A program made the translations under genes and the position numbers. This document shows positions 6,460 through 60,416 of a DNA stretch of 64,000 nucleotides, piece by piece. Numbering within the stretch: the first letter of the stretch is position 1; every line of letters starts with the position of its first letter. The stretch covers positions 137,558-201,557 of the IMG/VR virus record IMGVR_UViG_3300021399_000102; one strand, given 5' to 3'. Below the pieces are notes generated by a model. That model saw only the letters and a program-made list of their open reading frames with translations. It made no database searches and was not told where the DNA came from. The DNA is from a virus. Taxonomy: Duplodnaviria; Caudoviricetes.

Positions 6460-7308
6460 TCAGGAATCCATCGTGCAGTATGTCTCGCCATCTGATATGT
6501 TTGCGGCGAATATCCACAATGCCTTTTCGGCCAATTCCCTTGCATCCATCTCAGCAAGCTCCTCCTCGTCCCATGCTCCATATTCCCTCAACCACCTTCT
6601 GGCACGTTCCACTGGGAAGTTCTGGTCGAACTTAAGTTCATCCACCCAAACAGACACATCGTCGTCAACCCGTCCTGGATGCGAACATGCCTTTACGCAC
6701 TCGTCTGGAAGTGGTGACTTGTCTGGATCTATGCCAAACTCGTCTATTGCCCAATCAGGTGGAGTCAATTCCCCAATTTCGTTGAACCAACCGGATTCCC
6801 CATCTGAAAGGTAAGAAGAACCTTCATTCACGGCAGAGGAGTTCCTAATTTCATGATCAACTATGTCGATTGTGTCCAATGTGTCGCCGCGAAGAGACTC
6901 CACCCACGAGAACAAGTCACTGTCCTCCCCAAGTGCAGTCCTGACGTCATCTGACACATCCTATAGTCTTTGACCAATCTCGTCTAGTCTTCTCCTTGTT
7001 CTCTGAAGCAGAAACCTCTTCGCGTTGCCATTTATGCTTGGTGTGCCGGCGTCCCTGGATTCAGAAATATACTCATCATCGGTATCATCCGACCTCTCAG
7101 CAAGAATGCCCTTGATGTCGTCAATGGTGTCGCCAAGATCCATTGAATGTGAGTCGAGTCTTGCGAAAAGGAAGGTCTCGCCACGTGCATCACGTATTGT
7201 GTTCGCAGCATCGTCCAGCAGCTGCTTTGCCTTGATGGTCGCTTCCAACGCCTGCTTAATCAACATATCGTCATTGGAACTTCTTTCCTTGATTGTTCTT
7301 CTTTTCAT
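6460..7308 (-). CDS. acidic late protein, possibly head-internal; 1 in-frame TAG read as Gln
   Basis: ORFs 6961..7308 and 6460..6957 are in one frame joined by TAG at 6961; AGGAG RBS; GTAAATA at 7338-7344. Confidence 0.8.
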
Positions 7309-7344
7309 CTCGTATCTCCTATTCTAAACTATAGATATATTTAC

Positions 7345-8094
7345 TCAAATCTTCTACCCATATCTCCTCAGGAAGTCCTCCCTTGCAGCCTTTTGCATCT
7401 CCATCATCTTCTGCTGTTGCTCGTCTTGCGCCACCGGTGACTTCATTTGCGTTTCCATCCCGTTCTTGTCAAGCAACACGAAATGCGTATATGCGCAAGT
7501 GAAGGAATGTTGGATTTCATCTGCTTCAGAATAGGACAATTGAAGGTCAGAGAATGCCTTTATCCAACAGTTCTTGAACCTGAATCCAACTATGGGCTTC
7601 TTGTAGGGCGAGAGCAATGTAACATCTATGTCGCAGGCGTTTATCAAACCATTTGCCTCTACGTTTCCAGTATCAAGTGCATTCACACCCTTGTTTACAG
7701 GAGCGTTGTTCATGCACCAATTGTAAAGCGCACGGTAGTCTGTCCAATCCGCACTCACGAAGTAGTTGAATGTGATTTCCTTGCTGCCAGGAGACATTGT
7801 ATATGTCGGCCTTTCAATCTCAATGGAACGATACATAACCTTGTCAGTACCCATTTCAATTGAAGGAATCGTGAATGTTGATAGACGGAGATTGACATTT
7901 TGAAAATCTGGCCCGAGGCACAAATAAATCGGAATATCTGCCACCCATTTGTTTTTGGCAGCAAAAGCATTTTGATTAGAAATCCCGTCATTTGCATTGA
8001 CATTGATTCCAGGATACACCAACTACTATTTCCTGTTCAAGTTCCTAGTTTGGTTTGGATGTTGAAAGTGATTGACATTATTGGGTATAGACAT
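7345..8094 (-). CDS. tail completion protein, T4 gp3 / tail-tube fold; 3 in-frame TAG
   Basis: ATG at 8094 has an AAGGAGGT RBS, then tandem TAG TAG (8026, 8023) and TAG 7354 before TGA 7345. Pattern FTIPSI..RP..ITFNYFV..DWTDYRALYNW..FKNCWIKAFSDLQLSY..CAYTHF resembles gp3/gp19. Confidence 0.8.
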
Positions 8095-9520
8095 GCTTGA
8101 ATACCTCCTTTAGGTTATTGATGTCTTTTCCACGAAGTATAGTGACATTGTTGGCAAGCATGCATTGATGCTTCGCTTCAAACTTTGCACATTCTCTGGC
8201 ATATCGTTCATCGGACCATTTTTTGTTTCGATATGGATTGAACATGACTTCATGTCCCGATTCATCCACCTTGAAGAATTGATCTCCCTTGACTTCATAT
8301 ATCTTTCCATTTATAAGAAAGTCGGGTTGATATATCCATTTCCTTTCACAACATTCATATGTGAAAGATATATTTGGTTGATATTCACACGCTATATTGA
8401 TGTTCTTGCAATAGTCATATACCTTAATTTCCCATTTGGAATCAAACCACATCCCATCATGCCAATATCTTTTCCTTCTTCGCACATGACAGACATGAGT
8501 TTGTTGGTATAATATGCCTCCGTGGTTTCGTCTATTAGTTTCTTGGCATTTATTCACCAATTCTTTCTTTTCTTGTTCGGACTTTTGCTCCCATTTCAAT
8601 TTCCTGGCTTCAATGGCTTCTGGTCTGTTTCCTGGATCGGATGTTCCATATGTTTGCTGGAAAGCACATCGTATCTTTTCATTAGTCTCTTTTGATGCAA
8701 ACCCTATTCCATTGTATCTGTCCATCTGCGTTTCCATTGCCCTGTTAAGTATATCTTTTGATTGCATTGGATTCTTGACACCAATCTTCTCCAAGCAAGT
8801 TCTTTCCCTGGATTCGACTGTTTGTCTAATCTCTTCCTCGGTTTTCTTGCTCCAAGTTTCATTTAACATGTCCTTGAATTCTGGTCGTTGAGTTGGATAA
8901 TCCACATTCCATTTTCTTCTGCAGGTTGCTTTTCGCTTGGCCTTCCCTTCTTTTGTCTGGCATGCCAATTTTCCGCCATGATTCATCCTATCGTGCTTTT
9001 GTGTCAGTTCTATATTGTTGTAATTTTCGTTTCCATACTTCTCTTTCAAGGTAGCCTTGGACTTTCTTGTTCGTTCGTCAATTTCCTCTTTAGTCTTGTT
9101 CCTCCAAATCTGACGAAGATGTTCTTTAGCCTCTGGCAATTGACCCCAACAATTCACGCCATGCGCTTTCTTGAAATTGTCTCGCATTGTCTTTTTTGTC
9201 TCTTCTGACTTCATTGCGCAAGAGTTGCAACAATAATCGCAATAACCCCTCGGGACGGAATCTATGTTCTTCCATTCAAGCGGTTTATTGCATTCTGGAT
9301 TCTTGCATCTTGGAAAGTCTGTCAAGTCGTGGACAATCCAATACAGCTTTGTTCTGAAGGTATAGAATGGGTCAGAAAGATGTGTAGAGGTCTTCCACTC
9401 CACGAAGTCCTTGAGGTACGATTTCTTCTTGAAGATCATGCCATAGGACTTATACTTGGAGCATATGTCCTTCACTTCTGTGGTATATTTCTCCACCTCT
9501 TCTGGCGTATATTCTTCCAT
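8078..9520 (-). CDS. free-standing homing-endonuclease-like protein (repeats plus C-terminal PD-(D/E)XK domain)
   Basis: CKNPEC/CCNSC Zn motif, repeated KATxxEKYG/GVxNPMQ units, FDSKWE...YQPDFLINGKIYEVKG. Confidence 0.75.
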   Translation of the reverse strand: MEEYTPEEVEKYTTEVKDICSKYKSYGMIFKKKSYLKDFVEWKTSTHLSDPFYTFRTKLYWIVHDLTDFPRCKNPECNKPLEWKNIDSVPRGYCDYCCNSCAMKSEETKKTMRDNFKKAHGVNCWGQLPEAKEHLRQIWRNKTKEEIDERTRKSKATLKEKYGNENYNNIELTQKHDRMNHGGKLACQTKEGKAKRKATCRRKWNVDYPTQRPEFKDMLNETWSKKTEEEIRQTVESRERTCLEKIGVKNPMQSKDILNRAMETQMDRYNGIGFASKETNEKIRCAFQQTYGTSDPGNRPEAIEARKLKWEQKSEQEKKELVNKCQETNRRNHGGILYQQTHVCHVRRRKRYWHDGMWFDSKWEIKVYDYCKNINIACEYQPNISFTYECCERKWIYQPDFLINGKIYEVKGDQFFKVDESGHEVMFNPYRNKKWSDERYARECAKFEAKHQCMLANNVTILRGKDINNLKEVFKHVYTQ

Positions 9521-9528
9521 ATATTCAA

Positions 9529-9714
9529 TTATACCTTGTGTATTTCACCTGTTGCCTTGGTATTTTTATCGTCCTCAACAAAGAACAAGCTCCCCTCAAA
9601 CGCCTGGCGTCTTTCTTCAGCTTCCTCAGAACCATCTACGCCTTGTCCCATGGACTTGCGCAAACGGTCATATTCCTCTGGAGTTACTGAATAGAATCTA
9701 ACTGGAATTGCCAT
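9529..9714 (-). CDS. small late hypothetical protein
   Basis: behind GTAAATA 9742-9748. Confidence 0.55.
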   Translation of the reverse strand: MAIPVRFYSVTPEEYDRLRKSMGQGVDGSEEAEERRQAFEGSLFFVEDDKNTKATGEIHKV

Positions 9715-9803
9715 TGTCTCTCATCTTCGTTTCGTTTATGGTATTTACCATTCTCGCTATGCAAAGGTAAATATTATCCAACAACCAATACACAACACAT
9801 AAC

Positions 9804-9974
9804 ATGAGCTACAACCCAAGGAAAGACGACGTATATCGTCGGCTTCAGAATCTTCTTCAGTCAATTAAAATGGACAGTTTCAGCTTGACCAGCGACGATT
9901 AGTATTTTCTGGAGATGAAACTTGACGAATTCAAGAAACTGCTTGACGAGAAATACGACAACAAATCAAATTGA
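9804..9974 (+). CDS. small late protein (56 aa) with 1 in-frame TAG; absent from the ORF track
   Basis: GTAAATA 9767-9773; MSYNPRKDDVYRRLQNLLQSIKMDSFSLTSDD*YFLEMKLDEFKKLLDEKYDNKSN, TAG at 9900. Confidence 0.65.
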
Positions 9975-10054: not shown

Positions 10055-11875
10055 TCAATCTTGCTCATATTGGTATTTGACTTTAATGAGCTTGAGACCC
10101 TTTGCAACGATTCTGTTGTTGGCAATCTCGCTTTGAGTGAGTTCAACTGGCTTCCATACCTTGTTCCTGATTTCAATTGACAAGGCATCGGAAATTTCTT
10201 CGGAATCTCCCTCCAACGCATCTTCAGTGAATGAACCAACTCCACCAGTATGGCTGATGAAGAAAGAATATCCATCTGGGTCGAGAACGGTATATCTCTC
10301 GGTATAGGGGAATGCCCCGCCATAGTCGAACACGCGCCATCCATCTGATTCAGAATCAATGGACTCGTCATATTCCTCGCCCGCATCTTCATCTTCTTCG
10401 TCTTGGTCGTAGATGCTTTGATATCCAGAATTCACTGCGTCAGCCAAGTCAGGAGCATTGAGTTCAATGTCAATGATTCCAGCATAGTATCCGGAGGTCT
10501 TGACATCAATATGGTCTGCCACAATCTTCTCCCTTGGAAGATCTATATGCATCCATCCATATCCATAGCTGAATGTGATGTCAAGTTCCTGATTCTCAAC
10601 CTCATTCCTCAAATCTTGCTCGGACTCCTCGTCGTCTTCCCATTGCTTGGAATAGACCACGGTCGCCACACCACCATCAATCTGGGCTGTTGGCGTATCG
10701 CCAAACTCATGGGCTTGCCAGAAGAAGTCGTTCTCATAATCCTCTGCACCAATCTCGTATTCACTAGGAAGGATTTCAACTTTGCATTCGTAATAGCCAT
10801 AGTATTTGTCCGGAACGAGCTTCTTGCTCAATATCTTCCCGAACTTCAAGCCCTTGATTGTCACGGTATAGCCAGCGCCAGCTCCTTCCTTCACAAGTTT
10901 CTTGGATTCTTCCATGTTGGAGTTGTCCAAATGTACTGTCTCTCCCACATCCAATTCCTTCAACTGCTTGGTTGGAATATCCTTGAGACCATATGTTTGA
11001 AGGAATGCATGAATATGCGTCAAAGTAGTTGTAGAGAGGTAGTCGTTGAGAAGCGAGAAGTCTTGTCCGTTTCCACCTTCACATCTTTCAATTCTGGCAA
11101 CCGGAGTGTCGTATGAAAGGAGCGTGAAACCATCTCCATCGTCCTCTACATACGCCTTGCGTCCAAATGAGGCGCGTCCATTTGTGGGTTCAAGTTCGCG
11201 TCTCATTCCCTCGTTATACCTCATTCCGAGTCCATCGTCTTCCACCAAACCTTCGTCTGTCCAAAGCAACCAATCCTTGACTCGCTTCTTGTCCCTTTCG
11301 CTGGCTTCGCTTGGATAGACATCATCAACACTATATCCAAAGTAGTCCTCAATCATTCCAGAGAGGTTCATTTCCCCATCACCTTCGTAGATATATGAAG
11401 GAACTTTGATGTATACACTCGTTGGCAAGCCTTCCGGTGGCTCATCACCTTCTACATCCCAAGCAACGGAAACACGAAGGAAGGTATATTCCTCGTCGTT
11501 TGCGATTCTGTCATTGAGTTTAGATTCTTTAATTTTTTTCATGATTTTGCTCTCTTTTTTGCAGTTGTTGCGATCAAGGACGAGTTCACCAATCCTTATC
11601 AGTTTGCCAAGATATGAATTCAATCCAGCAAGGGAAGTGCGTTTTCCAATTCCAATCGCGGTTTTCAGGTCTTCGTCTGCGCCAGGTATCCCATCATAGG
11701 AGTCCAGAATGTCCTTTGCCAGTATGTCCAAAATATTGGCGTTCTATGTGTTCCCGCCAAATTGCATCTGATATTCGTACCATTTGCGAACATTCTCTAT
11801 CGTCTAGTCGTTCAGTTGCATGCCTTCAAGTGGCATGTCTCGCAAGCTCTCGTTGAATCTTGATATTGTCTTCAT
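10055..11875 (-). CDS. large acidic late protein (606 aa), candidate head-internal protein; 2 in-frame TAG
   Basis: frame extends from 11731 through TAG 11744 and 11804 to ATG 11875, 8 nt after GTAAATA 11884-11890; repeated KIKES/KLVKE/FNES motifs. Confidence 0.75.
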
Positions 11876-11901
11876 GATGTTATTATTTACAATAAACACC
11901 A

Positions 11902-13609: not shown

Positions 13610-13735
13610 TCTCGTCTCTCCTAATTTGTTGTCTATTCAATTATACACCATCTTGGTTGTTGAATTAAGCGTTTACTTCCATTCGTGGGAATGGTATAAT
13701 TGAGAAGAACTGCAAGAGGATTTCACAGACGACCT

Positions 13736-15259
13736 ATGGCGAATTACAATGGCAAATCAAATGACGTGTTCAAGGAAGAATTGTCGAGCAAGACCCTTGA
13801 ACTTATGTTGTTTCGGGAAATGATTGTCAATCAAGAGTTTCTTGGGAGACTTTCAGATGTGGTGGATTTCAGATGGTTTCGCACCCCACACATACGCTTG
13901 ATGGCAGAGTTTGCAGTTGGATACTTCAGAAAATATGGTGGATTGGTCTCAAGGGACTTGATTGAGTCCATGATTCAGAGAAGGAACGAGAATCAAGTCA
14001 TTGAAGCGAACAAGATTGACCTCAATGTTGCATTATACGACTTCAACAAGGCGAAGGAGCTTGACCTTGGCTCAATGGAGAAGTCAGCACAAATCTCCAA
14101 GATTCAGGAGTACGTGAAGCAAGAAGCAATGAGGAATGCCCTTCTGGATTCAGCAACAAGCCTTGAAAGCAAGGACACAGATGGGTTGATTGAGAATACC
14201 CTCAAGAAGTTCGACGACATTCAGAGGATTCTGTTCGAGGAAATAGATTTTGGCGTGGAGATGTCAGCAGAGGAAGTTGATGCATCGCTTGAAGACCACA
14301 TCGACTTTCTCACAAATCCCTCAGCGAGAATTCCCACTCTTTGGGGATGCCTTGATGATGTCACCCACGGTGGATTTTTCAAGGATGGAAAGTTCTTGGG
14401 GGTGTTCATGGCTCAGGCTGGCCTTGGAAAGTCCAACATCTTGGCGAATTTGGGCTACAACTTCTTGAAGCAGAACCTCAAGGTGGCAGTGATCTCGATG
14501 GAGATGAGCCAGAATGTGTATCTTCGCAGATTCGACTCGCTCATATCCAAGATTGACATCGACGAATTGGGGTTGTCCAGCATGGTTGGGCAGTTGAAGG
14601 AGAAGGTTGAGAGGTTCTACAAGTTCGACTATCCGGGTGCAAGGCTCAACATCAAGGAGTTTCCACCCAACAGCAAGTCGGCGAAGAACTTGGAGCAGTA
14701 TGTGGAGGAATTGGTGGTGGCGAAGGGATGGAAGCCAGACGTCCTCATCATAGACTACCTCAACCTGCTCAAGCCAAATGGTGGTTCGTCAAAGGGTGAT
14801 GCCTCACTATATGAAGATGGCAAGATTGTGTCAGAGCAACTTCGCGCATTGTCATATCATCTTGAGATTCCAGTTCTCACAGCAGTTCAGTGCAACTCCA
14901 GTGGCTTCAACACAGCAGACATTGGAATGCAGAACATCGCTGAATCCAGGGGCATTGCCCATACTGCCGACTTCATCGCTGGTCTATATCAAACCGAAGA
15001 CGAGCAAGTTCAAGGCGTGTTCCACATGAAGATATTGAAGTCCCGTCTTGGCGAGAGCAAGAACTTGAAGTTTGAGTTCGACAAGCACACGATGGAGTTC
15101 AGAGACATCAATGACGTTGTGGATACCAATGAAGCGAAGGAAATTGTCGCAAGTTCCACAAACTCAAACCTCATCAAGAAGTCACTTGGATTGCCAAAGT
15201 GTCAAGTTGATGACATTGAAGCAGACATATTGTTCAAGAACGACTTGGGGATGCCGTGA
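13736..15259 (+). CDS. replicative DNA helicase (T4 gp41 / DnaB-like)
   Basis: Walker A AQAGLGKS, ISMEMS, LIIDYLNL, TAVQ, IAESRGIAHTADF, ILKSR. ATG 13736 preferred over TTG 13700. Confidence 0.92.
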   Translation: MANYNGKSNDVFKEELSSKTLELMLFREMIVNQEFLGRLSDVVDFRWFRTPHIRLMAEFAVGYFRKYGGLVSRDLIESMIQRRNENQVIEANKIDLNVALYDFNKAKELDLGSMEKSAQISKIQEYVKQEAMRNALLDSATSLESKDTDGLIENTLKKFDDIQRILFEEIDFGVEMSAEEVDASLEDHIDFLTNPSARIPTLWGCLDDVTHGGFFKDGKFLGVFMAQAGLGKSNILANLGYNFLKQNLKVAVISMEMSQNVYLRRFDSLISKIDIDELGLSSMVGQLKEKVERFYKFDYPGARLNIKEFPPNSKSAKNLEQYVEELVVAKGWKPDVLIIDYLNLLKPNGGSSKGDASLYEDGKIVSEQLRALSYHLEIPVLTAVQCNSSGFNTADIGMQNIAESRGIAHTADFIAGLYQTEDEQVQGVFHMKILKSRLGESKNLKFEFDKHTMEFRDINDVVDTNEAKEIVASSTNSNLIKKSLGLPKCQVDDIEADILFKNDLGMP

Positions 15260-15291: not shown

Positions 15292-16674
15292 TCAAGTATA
15301 AAAATTGGAAACAGCAAGTCTTCTGCAGGTCGGAACCAATATAGTGGACTGGACCCAGTTTATCCCATCGGTCGAATAGAGAGTTGGGTTGTTTGCGTCC
15401 CTGTATTGATGTACATTCGCGGCCTATGAACTTGAATTGATTACTGAACGAAGAGCTAACACAAACATGCTTCCAGTAAATATAAGATGTGCTCCAGAAG
15501 TCTGGACAGTAACCGTTGGCTACTGTGATGAATATTGCGTTTCTTTATCAAATGTCACTGTTGGCAGTTTCTTGACTTGTCTCCATCCAGAAAGTAGGTT
15601 TCCATTTGCTGTTTTTGTATAGATATAGTCCTATGCGACAAGAACATAAACGCCATTGCCTTCCACTATACGCACCCTGTAATGATAATCCCATTCAATT
15701 GGTATTGAGTTCCCATTGGTGTCAGTTGGGTATTGGTCATATACCCATGAAATGCCATCTGAACCGAGTGTTCCAATGCAAAAGCAAACGGTGTGGTAGT
15801 GCATAGAATCTATCGAAGCACCGGCACATACTATTTGGTTGTTTATTATTGTGCAACTGTTGTAATCGAAATTGGTAGCAGATAGACGATTAAGTGCGTT
15901 AGTGAAAGTCTATCCCCCATCAATGGAGAAGTCCAATTTCCCTCCACCACATGTATGCATGACCAAAAACACGTCTTTCATCTCGTTTGATACGGTTATG
16001 CGTCCGTAGCAACAATCTTCAAACACATCAGTAGTCATGTAGACATCTGTCCCAGCAGTGTTAAGTTTAGACCGTGTCCAATTTATTCCATCGGTGGAAT
16101 ACCATGGACCCACGTAGTCTCCTGCTGTTTCCCCTGGATAAACTGGATCGCACACAACTATGTATCTTGGTGAGTTTTCGTACAGTCCACCACAGCAAAA
16201 TACCATTTTCTACATTTTTGTATTGCCATCTATCCAATTTATTCCATCGGTGGAATATTGGGGTCTTGCGCTGGTTCCAGTAGTATACACAGTACGTATG
16301 AACTTTCCTTCGGGTCCAGACCAGCACACGCTTGATACTGGCAATATGCTTGCATCTTCACTATCTCTCCAATTGAAGTTTGTTTCAGTTGCGTCGCCAA
16401 CATATTGGGTTGCTCCCATCGTGCTGCTATCATATCCATTTATTCCTGTAGATAGACCGAATGCTCCAACAACAGTACTATACTATCTCCATATGGCATA
16501 TAATGTCGTGTCTCTTGGAAAACCGGCTTCTACATAATCGCCATCTTGGTATTGCACATTGATGGCGTTTTTATCTGTATTCCAACCCATGAAGTCGAAT
16601 CCTGGACGAACAAATGTATTTGCGTTCAGTTTTGTCTTCAAGTTTCTCAGTGTTCTTTGTGTTTGCTTCGCCAT
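15292..16674 (-). CDS. tail fiber / receptor-binding protein (460 aa): Listeria-Bacteroides repeat plus YSTDGINW (Asp-box-like) repeats; 6 in-frame TAG
   Basis: fragments 16483, 16210 and 15910 share one frame; TAG at 16483, 16210, 15910, 15631, 15520, 15424; TGA at 15292; three YSTDGINW repeats span the TAGs. Confidence 0.8.
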
Positions 16675-16688: not shown

Positions 16689-17594
16689 TTATGCTATCTT
16701 TATATCCAATTTAAGTATTTTCATAGTTACAACATCAAACTGGCTCTGTGTCAAGTTGTAGCCAGTTGGTCCTTTGTAGTACAACCGGATCACATTGTCT
16801 CCAGTGGTTTTACTTACCAATTTGCTGTTCAATCCTGTCGCCCCCAAAGCCTTGAATTCTTTGTATTGGGGAAAAGACGATGGATACTAAAGCTATACCA
16901 CATAGTTTGTATTTGGGCAAAACCTGATGCCAAACTAACTATATGTGTTACTATCTGCGTCATTGTTTATAACAATCCAATTGTTAGAAGTTTGGGTAAT
17001 TCCAAACATTCCACTGCTAACACCACTACTAATTGCTGTGAAGTAATTTCCACCTGTATTCAGGTTGTCGTTGATGAACTATGTTATTTGTTGTGGCGTT
17101 TGGTTTTCAATCGTAACAATCCCAGATTCCATTGTATTTGCATACACAAGTGGTACGATACGCAAGGTATAGGAATATGACGTAGTTGTAGGATTTATTT
17201 TTATGACAGATCCAGATCCACAATAAAACCCTACATCCGAAAATCGTGCCGGTACCGAAACAGAATCCACAATACAAGGTACACTAGTGGAGTCACCACC
17301 ATTAATATTTGTGCGATAATACCACACAAAGCAATCACACGGAATGGTAACCGATTGTTGCGAAAGTATTGAACCTACCGTAATCGTAGATCCCCAATCC
17401 GGGATATTTCCATTGTATATGTTCCCGCTTGTATTTCCTAAGTTAGATATTCCTATTTTGGATCTCAGACTTGCAATGGATACCTTCTTCGACCTATTTG
17501 TTCTTTCGCTTGTGTCTACGATGTATAGGATGTCATCGTCGGCGATGTCATTTTCCTGCAACTCGGTCATTTCACTTACTTTTATGTTTGACAT
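16689..17594 (-). CDS. virion fiber-associated protein (301 aa); 4 in-frame TAG
   Basis: N-terminus IKVSEMTEL..DDILYIVD..SKKVSI typical of fiber attachment domains; TAG at 17079, 16935, 16893, 16887; TAA at 16689 followed by the RBS of the next gene. Confidence 0.75.
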
Positions 17595-17610: not shown

Positions 17611-20600
17611 TTATTCGACGATTATGTTATCGTTATTTTCTGCTATTATTGGAATGTCGTCCTCTGTGACAAGAAACTCATCCCCATCGTTTGAGTCGAA
17701 TGTCAATGTCACAGGATCTTCAATCCACTTTGCATACAACGTTTTGTCTTCTGCAAAATCGCAGATGTGTGCGTTTTCTCCAGACGATGTGTAGTATTGC
17801 ACTCCTCCTCCATTTGGGTAAGAGTAGTATCCACCAAAGATGTATCCTGTCCTCGTTGGTGGGGTTATGGTTGGCATTGCCTCACCATAGGTTGCTGTCA
17901 CGCCTGATGTTCCACCAGTCCCGTTTTGCCTATTGAATGTCACTGTACATTGAATGGCTTGCCATGTAGGAGTCATTGTAATGTCACCGAATGTATTGGC
18001 AGGAATGTACAATTTTTCGGGGTCAGTGCTGATCACATAAGGACTTGTACCACTATACCCAGAAAATGTCCAACCAGATATTCTATATCCTGTTCTTTCA
18101 GGCAATGTAATTGATATGTTGCTTTGCAAACTTGAAGATTTGTAGTAGTGGTTTGGTGTAGTGAAGCCAGAAGAACCACCATTTGGATTGACAGTTATTG
18201 TATATCCATTGCGCCACCAAGCATATAATGTATGGTTATTCGGTGTAGTTACCGTGGTACTTGAATCCACCAATGTCCCAGATGAAGTGTCAGACTGGGC
18301 TTCTGTATACCACCCACTAAACAAGGTATACTATACATTGGTTGTTGGTGTTGGCAATTCTCCATATGGAGAACCATATGTAACCAACTTGGATGTGGGG
18401 GATACCGAACCATGTCCTGGATTGAAGGTCACGGTATATTTGGGAGATTCCCAAACAGCATATAAATCAACTGTCGCTCCATCTGTTGAAGTAAGATTCT
18501 TCACACTTTGTCCATTGTTGTATTCTTTGTTTCCATCTCTGCTCTTTGCCCAACCTTGAAACGTGCTGCCTGTTTTGGAGAAACCATTTGGACTCAAGCT
18601 CTATTCAATGCCATATGTGAAGTTCTATGGATCCATAGTCCCGGTTCCACCATTCGGGTTGAATCTCACCGAATAGGTGTTTGGTTTCCATTGTGCTGCA
18701 ATTGTTACCTATCCATCATTCAATTCTGTCAAGTTATTGAAACTCACTGCACCACTTGGACTTCCATTTGCGCATAGCATTGACGAAGATGTTATGATAT
18801 TATTGCACGATGATATGGATGTTCCATATTTTGCGGTAGTTGTATTCAATCCACTTTCCACACACCAACCCTTGAACTGGTATCCTGTTCTGACCAAGGC
18901 GTCAACAAGAAATGCGTTGTCAAATGTTGCAGATATGTCAGAGAGAGTCCCACCATATCCATTGCTTATATGCACAAAATATGTGTTCGCCTCCCAATTT
19001 GCGATTATCTCCATATCCTCTTCTGGGGCAATATCAGAGGAAACAACTTTCCTTTCCAACGTCTCATCATCAGTATACCAACCAGAGAATTGATATCCTT
19101 GTCTCACAGGAATTGGGAAATCTCCAGATGGGGTGTTTCTTTCGTAACTAAACGCCTGCCCTGTCCAACAACTCCTTGTCTATGGAACATCATCCTCAAA
19201 GTAGCCCAAGTTCGTATTGAAGGTAAGTGTCATCTTTCCATCCTTCCAATGGGCATAAAGCGTGTGGTTGCTTGGAGTTGTCACTATTGTGCTTGACTTT
19301 ACTTCAGAACCTCCTCCCTCACGTGTGAACCATCCAATAAAGGCATAATCGTCGTGAGTTGGCGTTGGCAATGTTCCATATTCCTGTCCATATGTCACTG
19401 ACTTTGTTTGATGCTCAACATTCCCCTCTGTTGGGTCAAATGTCACGACGTAATTGTTGGCAGTCCAATGGGCATACAATGTTGTTGGTGCTGATGGTTG
19501 ATATTCCTGTCCAGAACCATCTATCTCGATTCCATCATTGTTCGGGGAAGTCCACCATTTGGTGAATGTATATCCTGTCCTGTTGGCGTTTGGCAAATAT
19601 ATATTGCCCCAATTTCCCCATTTGGCATACAATGTTATGCTGGTTTCTGTTGTCAAGTTCTTGACATTCTATTGGTTGTTGTAGATCTTGTCCCCGGCGG
19701 CGCTCGTCGCCCAACCCAAGAATTCCCTATATGAAGTCAAACTGGATTCTGTTGGATATCCACCGTTTCCGTTGAAGCTTACCACCAAAGAGTTAGAGAA
19801 CTCGTTCTATCTCAACTTCTGATATACATCGTATGTGAATGTCTGATCTTCCATCGTACCAGTTCCACCGTTGGCATTGAACTTCACGATGTATATTCTG
19901 ATATCCCAATTCGCCACATAGGACTTGTTTCCTGTTGAACCTGTTGGAATGGATACTTCGGTTTGTGGCGTATTGCCATTGCTTCCTGTCCATCCAACGA
20001 ATTGACGGCCAACATATTCTGGCGTAAGCAAGTCATACTTGTTTGACTCTATATTATAACTTGCTCTTGGTGTTTGACCAGAACTCCAACTTCCACCATT
20101 GAGGTTGTATGATATGGTATAGTTGGTCAAGTTCCAATGTGCGTAACATTCAAAGCTATGCTCCACTGTCAAGTCACTTGTTATTTGTTCTCCATCTTCT
20201 GACCACCAATGGTCTTGGCTATATCCTGTTCGGTTTGCTATTGGAAGCGTACCAACTTTAGAGCCATATTCCCTCTCTGAGGTAAATGTCTCGCATCCAG
20301 GATAGTTTGGATTCCAAGTGATTGTGTATGTATCGGCTATCCACTGCTCATACAAGTTCAAGTCGTTATATACCTTCTTTGTTGCAAATACTTGATCACC
20401 ATCTGTCCTTGCAGTAAACCATCCCTTGAATGTATATCCCTATCTTGTTGGGTTTGGTGGAAGTTCCCCAAGTCTTGCACCCTGTCGTATTTTTGGGTGG
20501 CGTCCAGATTCACCATCCCATATTATGTATGGGGCCGTTTCGTTTTCTTTATAGAATCTAATGATATATTCAGGAACTTCTGGCTTGTTCCAATGGGCAT

Positions 20601-23088
20601 AATATGTTACGTTGTCGTTTATTACCTTCCACGATTCGTCAATCTTGCTTCCCTGATTTGGTCTATGGTCTGTATACCATCCATCAAATCCAGTAACCAT
20701 TTCTGGAAGTTCATCCGGAATTGGAAGAAAGCCAATCTCATCTCCATGATTGTATGTCCTCTTGAAAATCGTGTCTGAACCCCCAAGACCACAATTTGTG
20801 GATGCGCAGTTGTATTTTGCAGTATGTTCATTGACATTGAATGTCACTGTATGCTTGATTGTCTGCCATTGTGCGGTATAGTAGGAATTTCCCTACACAA
20901 TGTCGTTTCTTACATCAGTGTGGTTCTTTATGCTTCCATCCGGACATTTCCATCCAATTAATTCATATCCTGTTCTCTCTGGTTTCACGGGAGGAAATGG
21001 ATATTCACCAATAGTTTCGCCAATAGTCTTTTCACCCGCCCAGTTTCCATATGGGTCATGTCCAGCTGGCTTGAACATACCTCCATTTCCCAAGAAGTAC
21101 ACTTTGCACTTGTTGTCCTTCGGCTCACCTGTTATCTCGCGTTCTGCGTCAGTAAGTTCAGTGCACTCCCAAATATATACCTTCATGTAGGGGGGCAAGT
21201 TGTCGTGGGGCAACGTGATTTCATTTTCCTTTTTGCTTGGATATTCAAGAGGGCTTATTTGATAGTTCCTGTTTGTGTTCTCGATTTTAACAGAGTTTCT
21301 TGTGTCACTGCTTGCCAAGGCTGTATTGACGATTTTCGCGTCGCCTCCCTTGTTCTTTGCCATCCACTCCTGCTCTCGTGTCGTTATTTGACTTTCGTTT
21401 GATGGTAGAGTTTCTGAATGGGAATGGATAGGTATGTTGGATTCCCTCAATTCCACATATTCCTCGCCAAGCTTCTTACCTGGGATGTCTATAGTAATAT
21501 CATATTCCTTTACATGTGATTCATCCCATGCTCCTGGACTATGATGTTGTATGAATACATAAACAACATTATTATATCTTACCAAGTCCCCAATCTAATA
21601 TTCGTTTGATGTGTTAAATATGGATATTGTTGAAATGTCCATATTGACTCCCCTCAAGAAGTTCTCTATTCTGCGCCAAGATTTTCCACCATAGTTTGCT
21701 ATGACCTTTTGCTCTGTGTCGTCGGTGTATGATATTATGATTCGTCCAATGTAGTTCAATGGTGGAACTGACTTGCAAAGTTGTTCAGCAATTTCAATCT
21801 TCTCTTCTATGGCATCCAAACGCTTGGAAGCTTGGTTGTACCATTGCATGAATTCAGATACTGGCATGAGAAGACCATCAAGAAGCTTCATCAACAATTC
21901 ATTCATCGAGCCATCTTTGGTGGAAAGTTCCTTGTTGGTCTTGTCTGAGAATATGTCAAGGAGCATTTGCAGTCCCTGACGCCACAGTTGGATTTGTTGC
22001 TTTCCATCATAGGCTATTCTCAATATGCAGTCATGTGGAGTAAGATTCTCTTCAATGTAGTCCGGAAGCTCGCACACCATTGCTGAATCGTATCTGGATT
22101 CTGCTGCGCTATTTTGCCTTTTTCCGTCTTCGGCTTGTCCATCTCGGATTTCGGCGATTCGCTTGACGATTTCTTCGTATGTTTCAGTAGATTCAGTAAA
22201 TCCTCTTATGGTTGGTTGATTTGCATCCCAATATCTGACGTATATGTTCAAGGAAGGTGGGACATTGTTGTGTTCTTTCTTTGGATTTCTCCAATCCAAT
22301 ATGTTCTGTCCCCAAAGTGGATATGTCAATGCTTCATTTGTGGCGTGTTCCAAAGGGGTTGCCTTGCCTCCAATAGATGGTCCGTATTTTGTACCCTATG
22401 CCACCAACTCCTTGCTTCCAATCGTGAAGTCTCCAATCAATTGTCCACCACCAAACTTGTCAGAAAGAGGACCAGTGAGGGTTTCCGCCATTGTGTCCGG
22501 GTGTTTATGCTGCAATGGGAGACTGCCAATTGAAACGTCGTCTAAACCACCAATTGTGGCTTTGTTGGAATCCGTGGTCTTACACCATATTTGACCAAGT
22601 GAATAGGACATATTTCTGTAAATCGGGCCAAATATGCTATCGTCAGAAGGATTCAATTTCCAAGTAAGTTTCCTTGTGTTGTTGGATTGAAGTTCAACTG
22701 CTCCAGCATAATCCAGAACACCCTTGCGCCTCAATCCCAATATGATGTCGTCTAAGCCATCTTCAAGATTCTTCAATTTCTCATCAAAGCCATTCATGAA
22801 CGTTCTGGCTTCACTGCTCCTGACATAGTTCTTGAACTTCTTAGCTATATCAGTTTCATCAACCCCTGATGGACTTATCTTTGGTGGGTTCTGACTATAA
22901 TCCAACAATTCACCAAATATGGACTCTTTCAACTTCGTGAACAAATCACTCTATTTCAGAGCCATATATCCTCTGGTTGATGTTGATGTTGGGAAGAACA
23001 AGAAGCAATCGTTGTCATTGTCTGACAACGTGAGTTCATGCACCGAAATTGGATTGATTCTGAGGTACTCTCTGACGTCAATGTTCAT
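17611..23088 (-). CDS. giant baseplate/fiber adhesin (1825 aa) with many Listeria-Bacteroides (Flg_new / InlB B-like) repeats; 12 in-frame TAG
   Basis: nine track ORFs in one frame joined only by TAG (22951, 22396, 21595, 20893, 20440, 19807, 19669, 19180, 18709, 18625, 18601, 18331); ATG 23088 is 9 nt after GTAAATA; repeats VTFNxNGG..PTRxGYxFxGW..LYAxW; collar-like PHDNLPPYMKVYIW. Confidence 0.88.
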
Positions 23089-29368: not shown

Positions 29369-30514
29369 TCAGTATGGCGTATAGTCGTCTGTCCCCATTG
29401 GATTCTGCGCTTGCAATTCTTCTTCTGTTGGAGATATGGTGTCATCCACGTCCAACCACGGTCGGGTCTCTATGGGCTTGTAGGGCATGCCATATTGATT
29501 CACATAGTTCTGAGATTGCAACGTCTGCGTCATGTGGTCTGGCGTGACCTCAACCTCTTGGTCGTACAACCTATGCTTCTAAGCAACGAAAGTCAAGCCA
29601 TCGCCAGCTTCAGGGACATAGCCAAATGGCTCGTTTGGATTCGTCCTTGGAACAAGCATCCCCGTATCAGGATCTCGTTCATAATCCAGAATCCAGTCTA
29701 TTTGCTCGTATTCAGGATAGGGGATTTTGCCATCATCCAACTTGCCAAGGTAGTTATCTATGGTCATTTCCTTCACTGCACCCAAATCCTAATCACCAGC
29801 ACCAAGATGCCCAGCTTGGTTTCTCTTGACATCATCTGAATCTGGCTCCAAATATGGCACTGCATGGATTTCAGCAGAGATCTTCGTGATTGGTGCAACA
29901 TATGGATTGATGGCAGTGAGAGGTTCTTGCTTCGTTCCACCAAATATGTGCGTCTTGTAGGTGAAAGAAAGCTCAGCAGTATGGATTTCGTCAGCATCCT
30001 TGGAAATCTCTGGCTCTGAAGATATGGATATGTCCGGGGACATCACCACCTATGATGTGTATTTCACGTTCGTGTATTTGGGATGTCTCGATGATACATA
30101 TACATCAGTGTTGAAGAATGGCAATATCTGCCCCAACATCATGTCTATGTCAGACAACCAACGAGACACCAAGCACACCTTGAACTATAGGTCTATTGGA
30201 GTTGGCGTGTAAAGGTCATAGTTTATCCTTCCCTCAATCTCCTGGTTCTTGATTTCGTTGTGCAGGTTCGTTATTCTTGAAGTCGCTATTGAAATGCCAG
30301 TCCTCTACACGGTAATCATTGGAAGCTGAAGCGCCTGCTGCTTCTCCAAGTTCTTGAATATGCGTGACCGATCACTGATAACTACCGGCACATCAATCGT
30401 AACCCTCGTCTTGTTCTCCTAATCCTATGAACGAGTTATCCTGAAGTTACGAAACAAGGATGCGAACAAGATGTTCGCTACCCGAAGTTCACTATTCCAA
30501 TTTCTAATTTGCAT
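29369..30514 (-). CDS. tail terminator / sheath stabilizer (T4 gp15-like, 381 aa); 7 in-frame TAG
   Basis: visible only with readthrough (TAG 30425, 30419, 30305, 30185, 30050, 29789, 29579): FASLFRNFRITR..IDVPVV..LPMITV..YTPTPIDL..DIDMMLGQILPFFN..AELSFTYKTHIF parallels gp15; GTAAATA 5 nt before ATG. Confidence 0.85.
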
Positions 30515-30594: not shown

Positions 30595-31332
30595 ATGAAT
30601 CGAAATCTCAAAGTAAAGCACTTGATCACAGAATCTGACATGCACGACTACGACCTCATCAAGGAATCCACGAACGATGGTTCTACTTTGTTGAAGTTGG
30701 CGGGTCCATTTGCAGTTTGCGAGACCTTGAACAACAACAATAGAATGTACCACTTGGAGGAAATGGTGGAAGAATGCAAGAAGTATCAAGAGGTGATTGA
30801 TGCTCATCGGGCGTTGAGCGAACTTGAACACCCAGACGACATCAACATCAATCCTGACAGGGTTTGTGCCAGAATTACGAAGTTCTATCAAGATCCACAT
30901 GACGAAAAGACTTTCTTGGGCGAAGCCATCATCATGCAGGGAGACCCCAAGGCTGGCATCCCTGGCACTCCTTGTGGCATAATCGTAGGCTCTATGCTTC
31001 AATATGGCACGAAGATGGGATTCTCAACAAGAGGTCTTGGCAATCCAGAGGAAGATGAGGATGGAAACACCTATGTTGGCGATTATCAGCTCATCTGTAT
31101 TGACCTCGTGACCGATCCGTCAATTGGTCGGTTTTGCGATGCCAAGCAGGAATCCAAGGCTGTGAATGGCATATTGGAGTCAATTGAATATTTGGTGGAT
31201 TCCAATCAGTTGGTCGTCGAATCCCGTGTGGTTGATAAGTTCAAGAAGGACTTGAAGGTGTTGCCAAACGACAGCGCAGAGAGGTTCATGAAGTTGAAGG
31301 GTGCTGTTGACAAGTTTCTTCGTGGAATATGA
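30595..31332 (+). CDS. prohead core protease (T4 gp21-like)
   Basis: NNNNRMY, SELEHPD, GFSTRGLG, IDLVTDPS; GTAAATA upstream. Confidence 0.92.
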   Translation: MNRNLKVKHLITESDMHDYDLIKESTNDGSTLLKLAGPFAVCETLNNNNRMYHLEEMVEECKKYQEVIDAHRALSELEHPDDININPDRVCARITKFYQDPHDEKTFLGEAIIMQGDPKAGIPGTPCGIIVGSMLQYGTKMGFSTRGLGNPEEDEDGNTYVGDYQLICIDLVTDPSIGRFCDAKQESKAVNGILESIEYLVDSNQLVVESRVVDKFKKDLKVLPNDSAERFMKLKGAVDKFLRGI

Positions 31333-54355: not shown

Positions 54356-54362
54356 ATTGAAA

Positions 54363-55082: not shown

Positions 55083-55195
55083 AATTTTTGCCTTTAGTTT
55101 AGAGACGTTATTTACGGTAACGTCATCTCTATTTACAATTATACGAAAATTTGTCCCAGACCTATGTTGGCCGTAAACCATGATGGAATGGGACA
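55083..55195 (-). promoter_or_regulatory. kissing-loop leader motif, copy 3
   Basis: loop TTTACGG complementary to loop CCGTAAA; TATAAT-t-GTAAATA between. Confidence 0.7.
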
Positions 55196-55200
55196 TTAAG

Positions 55201-55478: not shown

Positions 55479-55659
55479 TCAAATCGTTCTAAATTGACGT
55501 GTTGGGAAGGATTCGGACCTTCATAGGGCATTATGCTAACGAATGTTTCCATGCTTGGAAACCACCTCTCTAATGTCCAATCGGCGGCCTTTGCCGATGC
55601 ATAGCCCGTTCTATGCTGCTTCAACACACGAAACTTGTTTCAGCACTATTGAAATTCGC

Positions 55660-55731
55660 TGGGATGTGTTGGAATCGAACCAACCTAGTCACCCCTTATC
55701 ATAGGGCCGCCACACCAGTAGCTTACATCCT
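55660..55731 (-). tRNA. tRNA-Ile(GAU), divergent second copy
   Basis: GCCCT-at GAT aa-GGGGT; canonical T arm; no CCA. Confidence 0.65.
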
Positions 55732-56479
55732 TTATAGCATGTCTATTGTGCTTCGCCGCACGACCTTACACCCACGTCTGGGCATTTTGCGCAAAATTGA
55801 AAAGGTCTTTCTCAAAGGCAATCTATCATATTCTCGGCGCCAACTGGTCAATTACTCCAAATGGCGTTGTTCCTCAATATGAGGTGTGGGGTTTCTTTCC
55901 ACGGTTGTTCCAAACCAATCGCAGGCTACTTGTGGGTTTTCTGCCCAATCCGTGCTTCTTACACCATAGAGCAATTCGCCTTGCCTTTGATTCAATTGTG
56001 TTCCCCTTGGTCAACCACTCGCTGCCCATCGTCTCGCTAAAGATCTGACGCCGAAGCCTTGTCCGTTGCAGGGGAAATCTTGAAATTGTAGAAGTGGCTG
56101 GGCCCGAGGGTCATACCTATCATAAGAGAGTTGCATCCGGATCCACATTGCTCTCCCATATTTCAGCTGGGTCTCTCAGTCATGCCACATTGAAATTGAA
56201 CAAGGCACTATTTGGATGACAAGTATCCAAAAGATTCCCAGCTCCGAACCGGGCGTTTCAATAACTAAGGCATAGATTGTCCAACTTGTCATAATGGTCA
56301 TCTACACCCATAGCGGAGGCGTTTATCTCCTCAATCTTGTCGTGCCGTCAACTACCTAACCACCAAAAGATGGGCTAAGTTTTCCGTGAGTTACCTCCGA
56401 CGATTGGCTCGTTGACAGAGCCTGCCAATCAGATTGGGTTTCAGCAATTAGAAAACCAACGAGATTGGGTGTATGAAAT

Positions 56480-56554
56480 TGGTAGCGGGAATTGGAGTCG
56501 AACCAACCATCACCGGGGTATGAACCCAGTATGCAACCGCTGCACCGTCCCGCA
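56480..56554 (-). tRNA. initiator-like tRNA-fMet(CAU)
   Basis: 1:72 mismatch, GGG/CCC anticodon stem, tt CAT ac; ACCA. Confidence 0.85.
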
Positions 56555-56895
56555 ATCTTGAAAATGGTGTTGCTGAGGGAGTGCGCTACGCTCCAATGTT
56601 GGGTATTCCTTCACACTTGGCAAATTCTCCACCCCATCGGGCCCTATGAAATGGCGTCTTCCAAGATTCACTGTGAAGTTTAGTTGTATTTCCCAACTCC
56701 CTCATGCAAGAGGGTATGTTGCTTTCCATCACTCGCAACGAAATTGAATAGCCATTCGCTTTAGACCCAAGGTTCCCTAATGGGTTTCCTCCAAGGGCTG
56801 ACTCGCGTATGATGTTCCTTCCTCAGGAACAGTCTTTACTACATCGTCATTCAATTGTCAAAGATCCTATTGTCGCTTTCACAAACAACACCCAT

Positions 56896-56928
56896 AGTAT
56901 ATCACATCTCGGTGTTCTTGTAAAGGGG
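56896..56928 (-). promoter_or_regulatory. sigma70 promoter of the RNA array plus boxA
   Basis: CCCCC-TTTACA-N17-TATACT with extended TG; GATCTTTGACAA at 56855-56866. Confidence 0.8.
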
Positions 56929-56948
56929 GTTTCCAAACTTTTTCAGTT

Positions 56949-57025
56949 TGGTCACGGTGACGAGACTCGAACTCGCATCCCACGGTTTAAAAGACCGTTG
57001 CAGAAACCTATTTTGCTACACCGTG
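56949..57025 (-). tRNA. tRNA-Lys(UUU)
   Basis: ACGGT-ct TTT aa-ACCGT; ACCA. Confidence 0.9.
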
Positions 57026-58896: not shown

Positions 58897-59540
58897 CGTT
58901 TGACCTTGGCCATGTTCCTAACATTGGCCGTGTTCCCTACATCAGACGCCACATCAAATGTCACCATCTTGATTTCCTGAGTTCCAAATATCTCTGACAT
59001 GAAGTCCTCGAACCTCTCTTTCACATCATGGTTGCCACCAATTGATGTATAGTACTGAAACTCCTCCTTGAGTCGCTTGTACTGCTTTTGCGTTATCTTC
59101 TTGGTTGCCTCGTGGAAGTCTATTGTCTTGATGATGTCGTCTCTCAGAAGCCAAATCGTCCCCTCCTTCGCTTGCTTCATCATTTCCTTGTGAGTCTTAT
59201 CAGATTTCTCCACAAGTTCCTTGTATTCCCTACCAGACTTTTCATGTGCTACTTGCTCTTGCTTGTTGAAATTTTCCAACTTTTCGGAGAATCTCGTGGA
59301 AATCTTGTCGAAGCCCCAAAGCATGGATACAATGATTACCACATCAAAGAGGAGAGACCATCCCATCCCAAGCAACGTAGATGTCATTCTGGACATTTCC
59401 CTTTGGTTTCCACAATTCTGATTGTATGTTGCCCCACTTCCAAGATTCACAGTAGTGCCTTGTTGATTGAAGGAATCATCAACCTTGGAATTGTCCTCCA
59501 AGTTTGCGCTCAGATGTGGATTCGTGATAGGTATTTCCAT
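58893..59540 (-). CDS. membrane protein, holin-like / lysis-cassette family
   Basis: single TM helix, coiled coil, LLRDDI...YTSIGGNH motif; GTAAATA 59632-59638. Confidence 0.6.
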   Translation of the reverse strand: MEIPITNPHLSANLEDNSKVDDSFNQQGTTVNLGSGATYNQNCGNQREMSRMTSTLLGMGWSLLFDVVIIVSMLWGFDKISTRFSEKLENFNKQEQVAHEKSGREYKELVEKSDKTHKEMMKQAKEGTIWLLRDDIIKTIDFHEATKKITQKQYKRLKEEFQYYTSIGGNHDVKERFEDFMSEIFGTQEIKMVTFDVASDVGNTANVRNMAKVKR

Positions 59541-59684
59541 TTGGCATCACCTCGTAGTTCAAGATTGGGTTATGTTTGGCTATGAACGTTACATGTTGTA
59601 TCTATGTGTTGATTCTATTTATGTCAATCTATATTTACATATAAGATGTCAGAAATTAAAGCCATATTGCATTTTTGGGGAGAT

Positions 59685-60416
59685 TCAGTTTGTTAATTTG
59701 GGGGACGTTTGGTTGAATCTCATTGACAAGGGCAATAAATGCCCATCTTGGCCGTAGATTGGTTCAAGGCTCTTCACTTGATTTGGCTTGAACACGATGT
59801 ATGAGGTTGGATCGTGTTCAACGTCAGCCTCATAGTCGTTTCTATATATTATGCCATCGTAACGGCTCTCCAAGCAACTCTTATGCAAGATTTCCTCATA
59901 CTATGGCTTCAATTGAACCCATTGTGGAGAATCAATGCACCTATGCCAATCAAGTGCGGTTTTCTTGTCAATTCCAACGGATTTCAGAAGCCTCCAAGCA
60001 TCCTACGCAACAGACCTTTGCTCGTAGAGATACATAGATTGTTGAGATTGATAAGGGATTCCGAGCAACTTCAGGGCTGCCTTCTGTACGATGCTTCCAA
60101 CATCCCAAGAATCAAGGTCATTGTTCAACATTATGGGATTGTGGAGCGAAATTGCAACGTGAATGAGCTTTCCATTTGGAAAATCGTGGCGTTCTGCTTC
60201 GTAATATGTGTCGTAGATTCTGTTCTATGCCACTTCCTTGTCCTTTGCGAAATGGAAGCCAATGTCGCCCTTGATGAACTCGTCGAAATCAACATATGTC
60301 CCGTGCCAAGCTTCAAGATTGTAGCCCTTGGACTATGCGACTTGAAACGCAAGATGGCTGCCTTGCTCCAGGCAACCACCTTGAATCAGTTGTTCATATT
60401 CTTGGTCGATGTTCAT
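59685..60416 (-). CDS. ADP-ribosyltransferase-like protein (ART-PolyVal type, 243 aa); 4 in-frame TAG
   Basis: readthrough of TAG 60333, 60225, 60003, 59901 joins AWHGT..FDEF..GFHFA..HNP with YDGIIYRNDYE..SYIVFKPNQVKS; ATG overlaps the upstream TGA. Confidence 0.8.

Follow-up and report, generated by a model that had tools for sequence, protein, structure and literature searches.

Predicted reading of TAG as glutamine and its partition between two promoter classes in a T4-like phage lineage

TAG-interrupted genes and the reading of TAG

The DNA stretch analysed here (the window) comprises bases 137558-201557, i.e., the final 64 kb, of a 201,557-bp viral contig from IMG/VR (IMGVR_UViG_3300021399_000102), and contains nine genes whose frames are interrupted by TAG, a triplet which appears to be read as glutamine in this phage and is concentrated behind one of two promoter motifs, GTAAATA as opposed to GTATAAT. 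Coordinates refer to the window unless given as genome positions, which are those of the contig. The nine frames contain 40 in-frame TAG codons in total, and with TAG read as a residue all of them run from ATG to TGA or TAA, in agreement with a preliminary description of the locus, to which the strand of 9804-9974 (plus) is now added. TAG constitutes 20% of the stop triplets in all six frames; the probability that all 40 of 40 interruptions are TAG is ca. 2e-28, and that of a frame of 1825 codons without TAA or TGA is ca. 8e-24. When TAG is read through, the crude coverage by open reading frames (ORFs) rises from 0.70 to 0.99 across 15.3-23.1 kb and from 0.17 to 0.97 across the gp15 gene, a favourable outcome of the coding-density comparison proposed earlier. 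Genome-wide, there are more than 100 in-frame TAG codons.

With the gp15-like protein of the window as the query, seven related loci were found, three of which lie in complete genomes with direct terminal repeats (G1, 433,895 bp; G2, 414,060 bp; G3, 418,068 bp). The phage lineage is therefore ca. 420 kb in size, and roughly half of it is absent from the 201.6-kb fragment.

The gene 29369..30514 (minus strand) codes for a tail sheath stabiliser of the T4 gp15 family (381 aa; PF16724, E 2e-21) and has seven TAG codons, with GTAAATA at 30520-30526, 5 nt before the ATG. The fibre operon lies behind GTAAATA at 23098-23104, which precedes by 9 nt the ATG of 17611..23088 (-), a gene with 12 TAG coding for a fibre-like protein of 1825 aa with eight Listeria-Bacteroides (Flg_new) repeats (Pfam, E 3.5e-82). 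All six of the repeat strings quoted in the preliminary description are found in this protein, which also has a weak match to CBM5/12 (E 5e-4, 20.4 bits, under the Pfam cut-off of 26.2 bits); in its nearest relative, from the short relative G4, five of the 12 TAG columns have CAA and another has TAG. The middle of the operon is occupied by 16689..17594 (-), with four TAG, coding for a lineage-specific 301-aa protein with no function assigned and no relative in G1, G4 or a second short relative, G5 (the probability of a frame free of TAA and TGA is 1.5e-4), and its last gene is 15292..16674 (-), with six TAG, coding for a 460-aa protein with a weak Flg_new repeat and weak N-terminal matches only, in G4 and G1 (probability 1.5e-6).

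The tail tube gene, 7345..8094 (-), codes for a T4 gp19-like protein of 249 aa (phrog_45, E 9e-14); it has a strong AAGGAGG site before its ATG and three TAG, two in tandem at codons 23 and 24, and one at codon 247. From the N-terminus on and across the TAG codons, its product shares 85.5% identity with that of the G1 orthologue, and in G1 codons 23-24 are TAG-CAA and codon 247 is AAT. Next to it, 6460..7308 (-), coding for 282 aa with no function assigned, has a single TAG at codon 116 (6961) and is preceded by GTAAATA at 7338-7344, 29 nt before the ATG, followed by an AGGAGA ribosome site; the orthologous frame in G1 is of equal length (296 codons), and only the C-terminal 118 aa align, with 33% identity. 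The gene 10055..11875 (-), coding for a 606-aa protein with a phrog_4264 domain, has TAG at codons 24 and 44 and GTAAATA at 11884-11890, 8 nt before the ATG, while its 44% identical G1 orthologue has CAA and GAA at the two columns. An ADP-ribosyltransferase of the ART-PolyVal type (243 aa; PF18760, E 4.8e-10) is encoded by 59685..60416 (-), the fourth gene in an operon behind GTAAATA at 61955-61961; it has four TAG, of which its 47% identical G1 orthologue keeps two and replaces one with GAA. The weakest of the nine is 9804..9974 (+), a 56-aa ORF with one TAG at codon 33, located 30 nt downstream of GTAAATA (9767-9773), whose length alone is not significant (P 0.2) and which rests on the promoter and a weak G1 match (44% over 52 aa). 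The earlier statement that all nine genes lie behind GTAAATA holds directly for five of them (5-30 nt before the ATG), and the other four are behind it only as downstream operon members; for one of these, the tail tube gene, GTAAATA is indeed upstream, but a GTATAAT promoter is also present in between.

For the comparison of codons, frames of G1, G4, and G5 were rebuilt from stop to stop with TAG open and compared by BLASTP, and each genomic position was given to the best-scoring frame. This filter removes shadow frames, which contaminate the unfiltered orthologue table (148 TAG-TAG columns, with TAT, TAC, and AAG prominent). Opposite TAG, in both directions (n = 118), the most common residue is Q (41), followed by K (17), E (12), L (6), S (6), and others, and at ordinary Gln columns of the same alignments the frequencies of Q, K, and E are.58,.08, and.07. 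Gln surpasses Lys, the next best residue, by 101 log-likelihood units, or by 68 with G1 alone. The identification of the amino acid, based earlier on internal repeats, is thus backed by the codon columns of orthologues (Q 41/118). In the gp15 alignment of eight genomes, a homologue comparison also proposed earlier, Gln codons or TAG are found at four of the seven TAG columns of the window (columns 30, 70, 110, and 155, facing CAA, CAG or TAG), the other three being variable, and the relatives have TAG opposite CAA or CAG of the window at columns 2, 91, 129, and 324. Gln or TAG is present in at least one relative at 16 of the 26 alignable real TAG columns of the window. The occurrence of TAG at the same columns in independent assemblies argues against assembly error. 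Judging from these alignments, TAG is a glutamine codon in this phage, and the features of code 15 are found together: the frames are restored by TAG readthrough, the TAG columns match Gln, and TAG is not a terminator.

Two promoter motifs and the distribution of TAG

GTAAATA is found at 62 sites in 201 kb; TAAATA itself is present at half of the expected count, and G precedes 62 of its 87 sites. GTATAAT is found at 55 sites, often as TG-GTATAAT with TTTAC ca. 17 nt upstream. Within 7-70 nt upstream of a co-oriented start there are 32 of the 62 GTAAATA and 30 of the 55 GTATAAT sites, compared with ca. 2 expected at random (2.2 for GTAAATA) and 3-5 in the wrong orientation. The consensus of the sigma-A-like class is TTTAC-N17-(TG)GTATAAT, and that of the -10-only class is (T)GGTAAATA, no conserved -35 having been seen at the GTAAATA sites. 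A scan of the sequence with a generic sigma-70 consensus gave counts not above those in shuffles (36 vs 37.7).

A candidate for the factor recognizing the second class is a 362-aa protein with the Sigma70_r2 domain only (E 1.4e-7), encoded by a TAG-free gene at genome 69889-70977 (-) that has an early-type promoter; this region-2-only sigma protein probably reads the GTAAATA promoters. Together with the -10-only A/T motif and the functions of the genes concerned, it suggests that GTAAATA marks the late class, and the terms early-type and late-type are used for GTATAAT and GTAAATA in this sense.

Genes were assigned to the nearest upstream co-oriented motif with simple gene calls and, for the nine window genes, curated coordinates. 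The GTAAATA class comprises 79 genes with 115 TAG in 29,800 codons, i.e., 10.8% of Gln codons, and the GTATAAT class 123 genes with three TAG in 23,057 codons, i.e., 0.5% of Gln codons. The rates are 3.9 vs 0.13 TAG per 1000 codons, a contrast of ca. 30-fold, and are far from the equal frequency in early genes that the preliminary description had named as speaking against it. At the gene level, with uncurated assignment, TAG is present in 26 of 75 vs 4 of 125 genes (odds ratio 16; Fisher p = 2.5e-9), that is, in about one-third of the late-class and ca. 3% of the early-class genes. All three TAG of the GTATAAT class are doubtful: one is the last codon before TGA, one is codon 4, and one lies in a mixed unit. 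In the complete genome of G1 a cruder, uncurated replicate with the same motifs gave 2.38 vs 0.77 TAG per 1000 codons (p = 2e-7). As to the claim that TAG is recoded only in late genes, its confinement to GTAAATA units stands, and the word late itself is derived from promoter class and function.

The GTATAAT class includes both DNA polymerase pieces, two helicases, both subunits of topoisomerase II, the clamp loader, methyltransferases, a phosphoesterase, the protein with sigma-70 region 2, and the tRNA array. The clamp loader gene (4552-5601, plus strand) has TG-GTATAAT at 4524-4530, and that of a DnaB-like helicase (within 13694..15259, plus strand) has TTTACT-N17-TATAAT, with GTATAAT at 13694-13700. 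Both are TAG-free, and the absence of in-frame TAG was confirmed also for the methyltransferases and the flavoprotein gene, the latter (32781-34007, minus strand, with a GTATAAT promoter) coding for a 408-aa fusion of a CoaC-type flavoprotein (PF02441) and Peptidase_M23. The GTAAATA class includes gp15, the tube operon, the prohead protease, the fibre operon, several giant unassigned proteins, and a few mobile genes. The prohead protease gene (30595..31332, plus strand; phrog_207, E 7.5e-34) has GTAAATA at 30553-30559 and is TAG-free, as are ca. 15 other window genes behind this motif, which means that in this class TAG is allowed and not obligatory.

Early-type promoters are found directly upstream of two TAG-bearing late genes, at 9534 (the tail tube gene) and at 23446 (the fibre gene). 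The first, GTATAAT at 9528-9534, is the nearest upstream promoter of the tube gene and belongs to 8078..9520 (-), a TAG-free gene of a 480-aa homing-endonuclease-like protein (phrog_3339, phrog_945) situated between a small leader gene (9529-9714) and the tube gene. In G1, GTAAATA is followed by the orthologue of the small gene and then directly by the tube gene, and the endonuclease-like gene is absent from that place, so that the exception at the tube locus is explained by a mobile insertion into a late operon. Two further endonuclease genes, 45508-46266 and 54363-55196 (both on the minus strand), have a near-identical upstream cassette, TTTTCGTATAATTGTAAATA (46300-46330 and 55110-55150), that overlaps both promoter motifs, as if mobile endonuclease genes brought early-type and late-type signals together.

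In three genes the distance between GTAAATA and the start codon is very short: 5, 9, and 8 nt before the ATG of the gp15, fibre, and 606-aa genes, respectively (30515-30526, 23089-23104, and 11876-11890, minus strand), with no ribosome site in between. If GTAAATA serves as the -10 element, the late messages of these three genes would be leaderless or nearly so.

The putative suppressor tRNA and translation termination

TAG is most likely decoded by a phage tRNA with the anticodon CUA, as far as can be judged from the sequences of three genomes. In the phage described here, the candidate amber suppressor tRNA is 79 nt long and located at genome 114646-114724 (-), at a distance of 22.8 kb from the window. 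Its acceptor stem, UGAUCCA/UGGAUCA, is 7 bp long and includes the pair U1-A72, with G73 and CCA encoded after it; the anticodon stem is GGCGG/CCGCC, and the loop, CC-CUA-AC, has a C as nucleotide 33. The U1-A72 pair and G73 are what we take to be identity marks of E. coli tRNA-Gln. In G1, a 90-nt tRNA(CUA) is detected by ARAGORN at 410487-410576 (-), in a syntenic location immediately after the 1698-aa gene orthologue, and in G3 the same promoter precedes a CUA tRNA of 77 nt, both tRNAs being of canonical form. A conserved GTATAATTGAATGTG and a related leader stand before the CUA tRNA in each of the three genomes, and in G1 and G3 a terminator-like hairpin with a T run lies ahead of the suppressor promoter. 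This promoter is of the GTATAAT type and hence of the early-type class, though its -35 is poor.

The G1 tRNA(CUA) has a long extra arm whose loop, UUCUGAA, looks like the anticodon loop of Gln(CUG). The suppressor promoter string GTATAATTGAATGTG occurs again in the window, at 6349-6440 (+), followed after ca. 45 nt by a 14-bp terminator-like hairpin (6402-6433), and this segment may encode a small RNA between two convergent genes.

The preliminary description had the phage switching its code late in infection. The suppressor, however, is behind a GTATAAT-type promoter here and in two complete relatives, i.e., in the class of the replication genes and the tRNA array, and a strictly late switch is for this reason not supported. 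A gradual change in decoding from early or middle infection is likelier, with the decoding capacity probably being built from those times on.

The tRNA array of the window (45318-57025) contains 32 tRNAs, including Gln(UUG) at 47120-47194 (-), and no CUA anticodon was found among the window tRNAs with ARAGORN (default and relaxed, with and without introns) or Rfam. A 'CTA' call of relaxed ARAGORN at 28923-29013 was discounted, as it lies inside a gene. About five tRNA-like elements are seen by Rfam and not by default ARAGORN (46382-46471, 48079-48149, 50525-50595, 52553-52622, and 52712-52814, all on the minus strand), among them a Glu(CUC) whose T-loop is unusual, one with a 31-nt insertion, and one whose loop may be that of Gln(CUG). 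ATTTCAAT, present in 43 copies in the genome, punctuates the array.

Neither an RF-1 domain (PF00472) nor a tRNA-synt_1c domain (PF00749) was found in this genome or in the three complete relatives, the controls being positive, and a release factor or a Glu/Gln-tRNA synthetase was accordingly rejected as a part of the mechanism.

Among the 202 genes tallied, TGA terminates 139 and TAA 63, a TAG-free tally that is true by construction, as only TAA and TGA were allowed to close a frame. A check of homology ends found no conserved window gene with TAG at the place where homology ends, and the earlier observation that no gene ends in TAG thus holds for the conserved window genes. That ca. 120 early-class genes never end at TAG would be unexpected under the plain standard code of a host, and it makes the early genes code-neutral. 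The description of a genome with two codes goes too far on this point, since early genes that do not terminate at TAG either fit both codes; the genome reads as having one code (15), with the extra sense codon kept out of the early genes. Outside the window, TAG is located exactly at the homology end in three genes (genome 108636-109049, minus; 81031-81423, minus; 19748-21400, plus), and it is followed by TGA immediately next to it, or by TAA 8 or 22 codons further on. These TAG may be residual terminators with back-up stops.

Related phages and the possible role of TAG

The phage is T4-like and ca. 420 kb in size. Its T4-type gene set comprises gp15, gp19, the prohead protease, a gp41-like helicase, and the clamp loader. 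A comparison of the helicase places the phage nearest, among those deposited, to T4-like myoviruses (Rhizobium phages among them) and to a 462-kb uncultured phage, with 25-29% identity, no deposited phage being more than ca. 28% identical in this protein. The gp15 protein matches T4-like cyanophages only (24-26% identity), a nucleotide search with the fibre gene against deposited phages gave no match, and no description of this lineage was found in the literature. The AAGGAGG form of the ribosome sites, the TGnTATAAT form of the promoters, and the Flg_new repeats may point to a host from the Bacillota. DNA polymerase is split in two (genome 26676-28784 and 30713-32059), and a gene of a 626-aa homing endonuclease lies between the two pieces (region 28.7-32.1 kb). 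The contig is of the linear class with a completeness of 48% according to CheckV. Remnants of Illumina adapters are present at its start (CTCTTCCGATCT, genome 1-12) and at its end (AGATCGGAA, window 63992-64000), which makes the contig ends assembly ends; possibly they are physical DNA ends.

In T4, which uses the standard code, gp55 recognizes the late promoter TATAAATA together with gp33 and the sliding clamp. The system described here resembles it in having a -10-like A/T-rich element without -35 before tail and head genes and a phage protein with sigma-70 region 2 only. It differs in the motif itself, which is GTAAATA, with the T4-type TATAAATA occurring once in 201 kb, in the size of the sigma-like protein (362 aa), and in the recoding of TAG.

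Recoded phages are, as stated in the preliminary description, a known kind. Borges et al. (bioRxiv 10.1101/2021.08.26.457843) described eight phage clades with recoding of TAG or TGA, with Lak, crAss-like, Garnet, Sapphire, and Agate among the code-15 gut phages; recoded codons were found in structural and lysis modules, with a variable use in replication genes. They also reported suppressor tRNAs that detection tools may miss, with RF2 and aminoacyl-tRNA synthetase as optional code-change genes of the published clades, and proposed an explicit model of a switch from the standard to the alternative code in the course of infection, which is also what the preliminary description proposed. For crAss-like phages, metaproteomic data have confirmed code 15 (Peters et al., PMC9523058). 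The present lineage is like these code-15 gut phages in that TAG is dense in structural or late modules scattered over a large genome, the standard code would also fit the replication genes, and a candidate phage suppressor tRNA(CUA) is present. Unlike in those clades, no RF2 or synthetase was found here, the partition can be read from two motifs, and the suppressor is behind an early-type motif; moreover, none of the code-15 clades of Borges et al. (averages 22-562 kb) matches this T4-like lineage of 414-434 kb. A survey of jumbo phages with codes 15, 90, and 91 (Anim Microbiome 2026, PMC13037316) found code 15 in those of rumen and gut origin, IMG/VR records among them; recoding was reported in hallmark gene regions, e.g., T4-type Portal_GP20, as were CTA-anticodon suppressors, many genomes being without a detectable one. 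In contrast to the present analysis, this is a bulk coding-density survey with no promoter classes and no per-codon amino-acid test, and the lineage described here was not found in it.

The interpretation we regard as very probable is that TAG means glutamine throughout the phage, that termination is by TGA and TAA only, that a CUA tRNA decodes TAG, and that of the two promoter classes TAG is confined to the late-type one. Under this interpretation the phage CUA tRNA would act with neither a release factor nor a Glu/Gln-tRNA synthetase found as a helper; the sigma-A-like promoters would drive replication, nucleotide, and methylation genes as well as the tRNAs, and the -10-only GTAAATA class the virion genes, with TAG accounting for ca. 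11% of Gln codons in the latter class and essentially none in the former. If, as we infer, GTAAATA is late and the host terminates at TAG, the TAG messages would remain incomplete until the suppressor accumulates. Should these assumptions hold, TAG would be a translational condition on top of late transcription.

Several points weigh against this interpretation. The contig represents ca. 48% of the genome, and the genes of the major capsid, portal, and sheath are outside the examined set. Some units are mixed under the nearest-motif assignment, the tail tube gene being downstream of both classes, and the timing of the promoters is deduced from the analogy with T4 and from gene function. Neither ARAGORN nor the Rfam tRNA model picks up the 79-nt CUA candidate, whose fold is no more stable than those of shuffled sequences (z 0.96). 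As regards a role in regulation, a location of the first TAG near the 5' end, as in a lock, was rejected (Kolmogorov-Smirnov (KS) p = 0.50, flat positional histogram), as was a next base favouring suppression, since TAG is followed by A in 45%, G in 31%, T in 16%, and C in 8% of cases, the same as CAG. TAG sites also turn over fast, with gp15 having 7, 4, 3, 1 or 0 TAG in close relatives. The absence of a 5' bias and of a context, and the quick turnover, fit mere tolerance as well as regulation.

It is quite possible, if not what we would expect, that the pattern of TAG is such a by-product: with a suppressor in place, C-to-T and like mutations would give rise to TAG at any site that tolerates Gln and would persist only in genes translated while the suppressor is plentiful, and selection would clear the early genes, with no timing added. 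The genes that keep TAG are late, fast-evolving fibre and tail genes, gp15 with its spread of TAG numbers included; G1 has TAG at only 9 of the 51 TAG columns of this genome, and conservation is lower at the TAG columns than at ordinary Gln columns, with Q opposite in 35% vs 58%. The even distribution along genes, the CAG-like context, and the late prohead protease gene without TAG agree with it too. A by-product, however, would explain the same partition as regulation does, so that the data do not separate the two, and the early-type promoters upstream of TAG-bearing late genes leave room for a translational block.

More tentatively, and in our opinion rather unlikely, TAG could act as a second, translational lock, with early transcripts that read through into late genes being untranslatable until the suppressor, made from its early promoter, accumulates. 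Under such a reading the lock would be needed because early-class and late-class units are interleaved and some GTATAAT promoters are brought by homing-endonuclease genes. Examples are the promoter at 9534, before the tube gene with its tandem TAG-TAG at codons 23-24, and that at 23446, before the fibre gene; it may be hypothesized that early-type promoters among late genes would give a timing function of TAG work to do. If true, a T4-like phage of 420 kb would have a tRNA-dose timer on top of a sigma system dedicated to late genes.

The remaining explanations stand far behind the glutamine recoding confined to the late-type class. It is very improbable that the host or a resident element itself reads TAG as Gln and that the phage matches it with no code change. 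The atypical suppressor tRNA and the release factor and synthetase domains not found in the phage are in its favour, but a fully recoded host would not require ca. 120 early-type genes nearly free of sense TAG, with TAG carried by only about one-third of late-class and ca. 3% of early-class genes, and the CUA tRNA behind a conserved promoter is kept in three genomes. Still less credible is a different amino acid, e.g., Lys, Glu, Tyr, Ser or Ala, despite K and E being the next commonest residues opposite TAG and several gp15 columns (29789, 29579) aligning with Ser or Pro codons: the lead of Gln amounts to 68-101 log-likelihood units, K and E occur in the proportions of Gln columns, and the candidate tRNA has U1-A72 and G73, presumed marks of tRNA-Gln. 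Assembly or sequencing errors, or pseudogenes, which the adapter remnants at both contig ends might bring to mind, have a negligible chance, given that the 40 interruptions are TAG and never TAA or TGA (P 2e-28), that relatives assembled independently from other samples have TAG at the same columns, and that conservation at the protein level runs across the TAG codons.

The recoding described here is a known phenomenon in a lineage not found described before, and the model of early and late recoding has already been published (Borges et al.; Peters et al.). The refinements specific to this case are the partition by two motifs, the code-neutral early genes, and the suppressor behind an early-type promoter. 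For the ca. 420-kb lineage, annotation with table 11 would shatter the tail, fibre, and giant virion genes, and code 15 is needed. The published pattern of standard-compatible early and recoded late genes is unusually clean here, with the two gene sets separable by two short motifs. Without changing the picture given in the literature, the combination of the motif partition, the early-type suppressor, and the avoidance of TAG even as a terminator makes the timing model testable.

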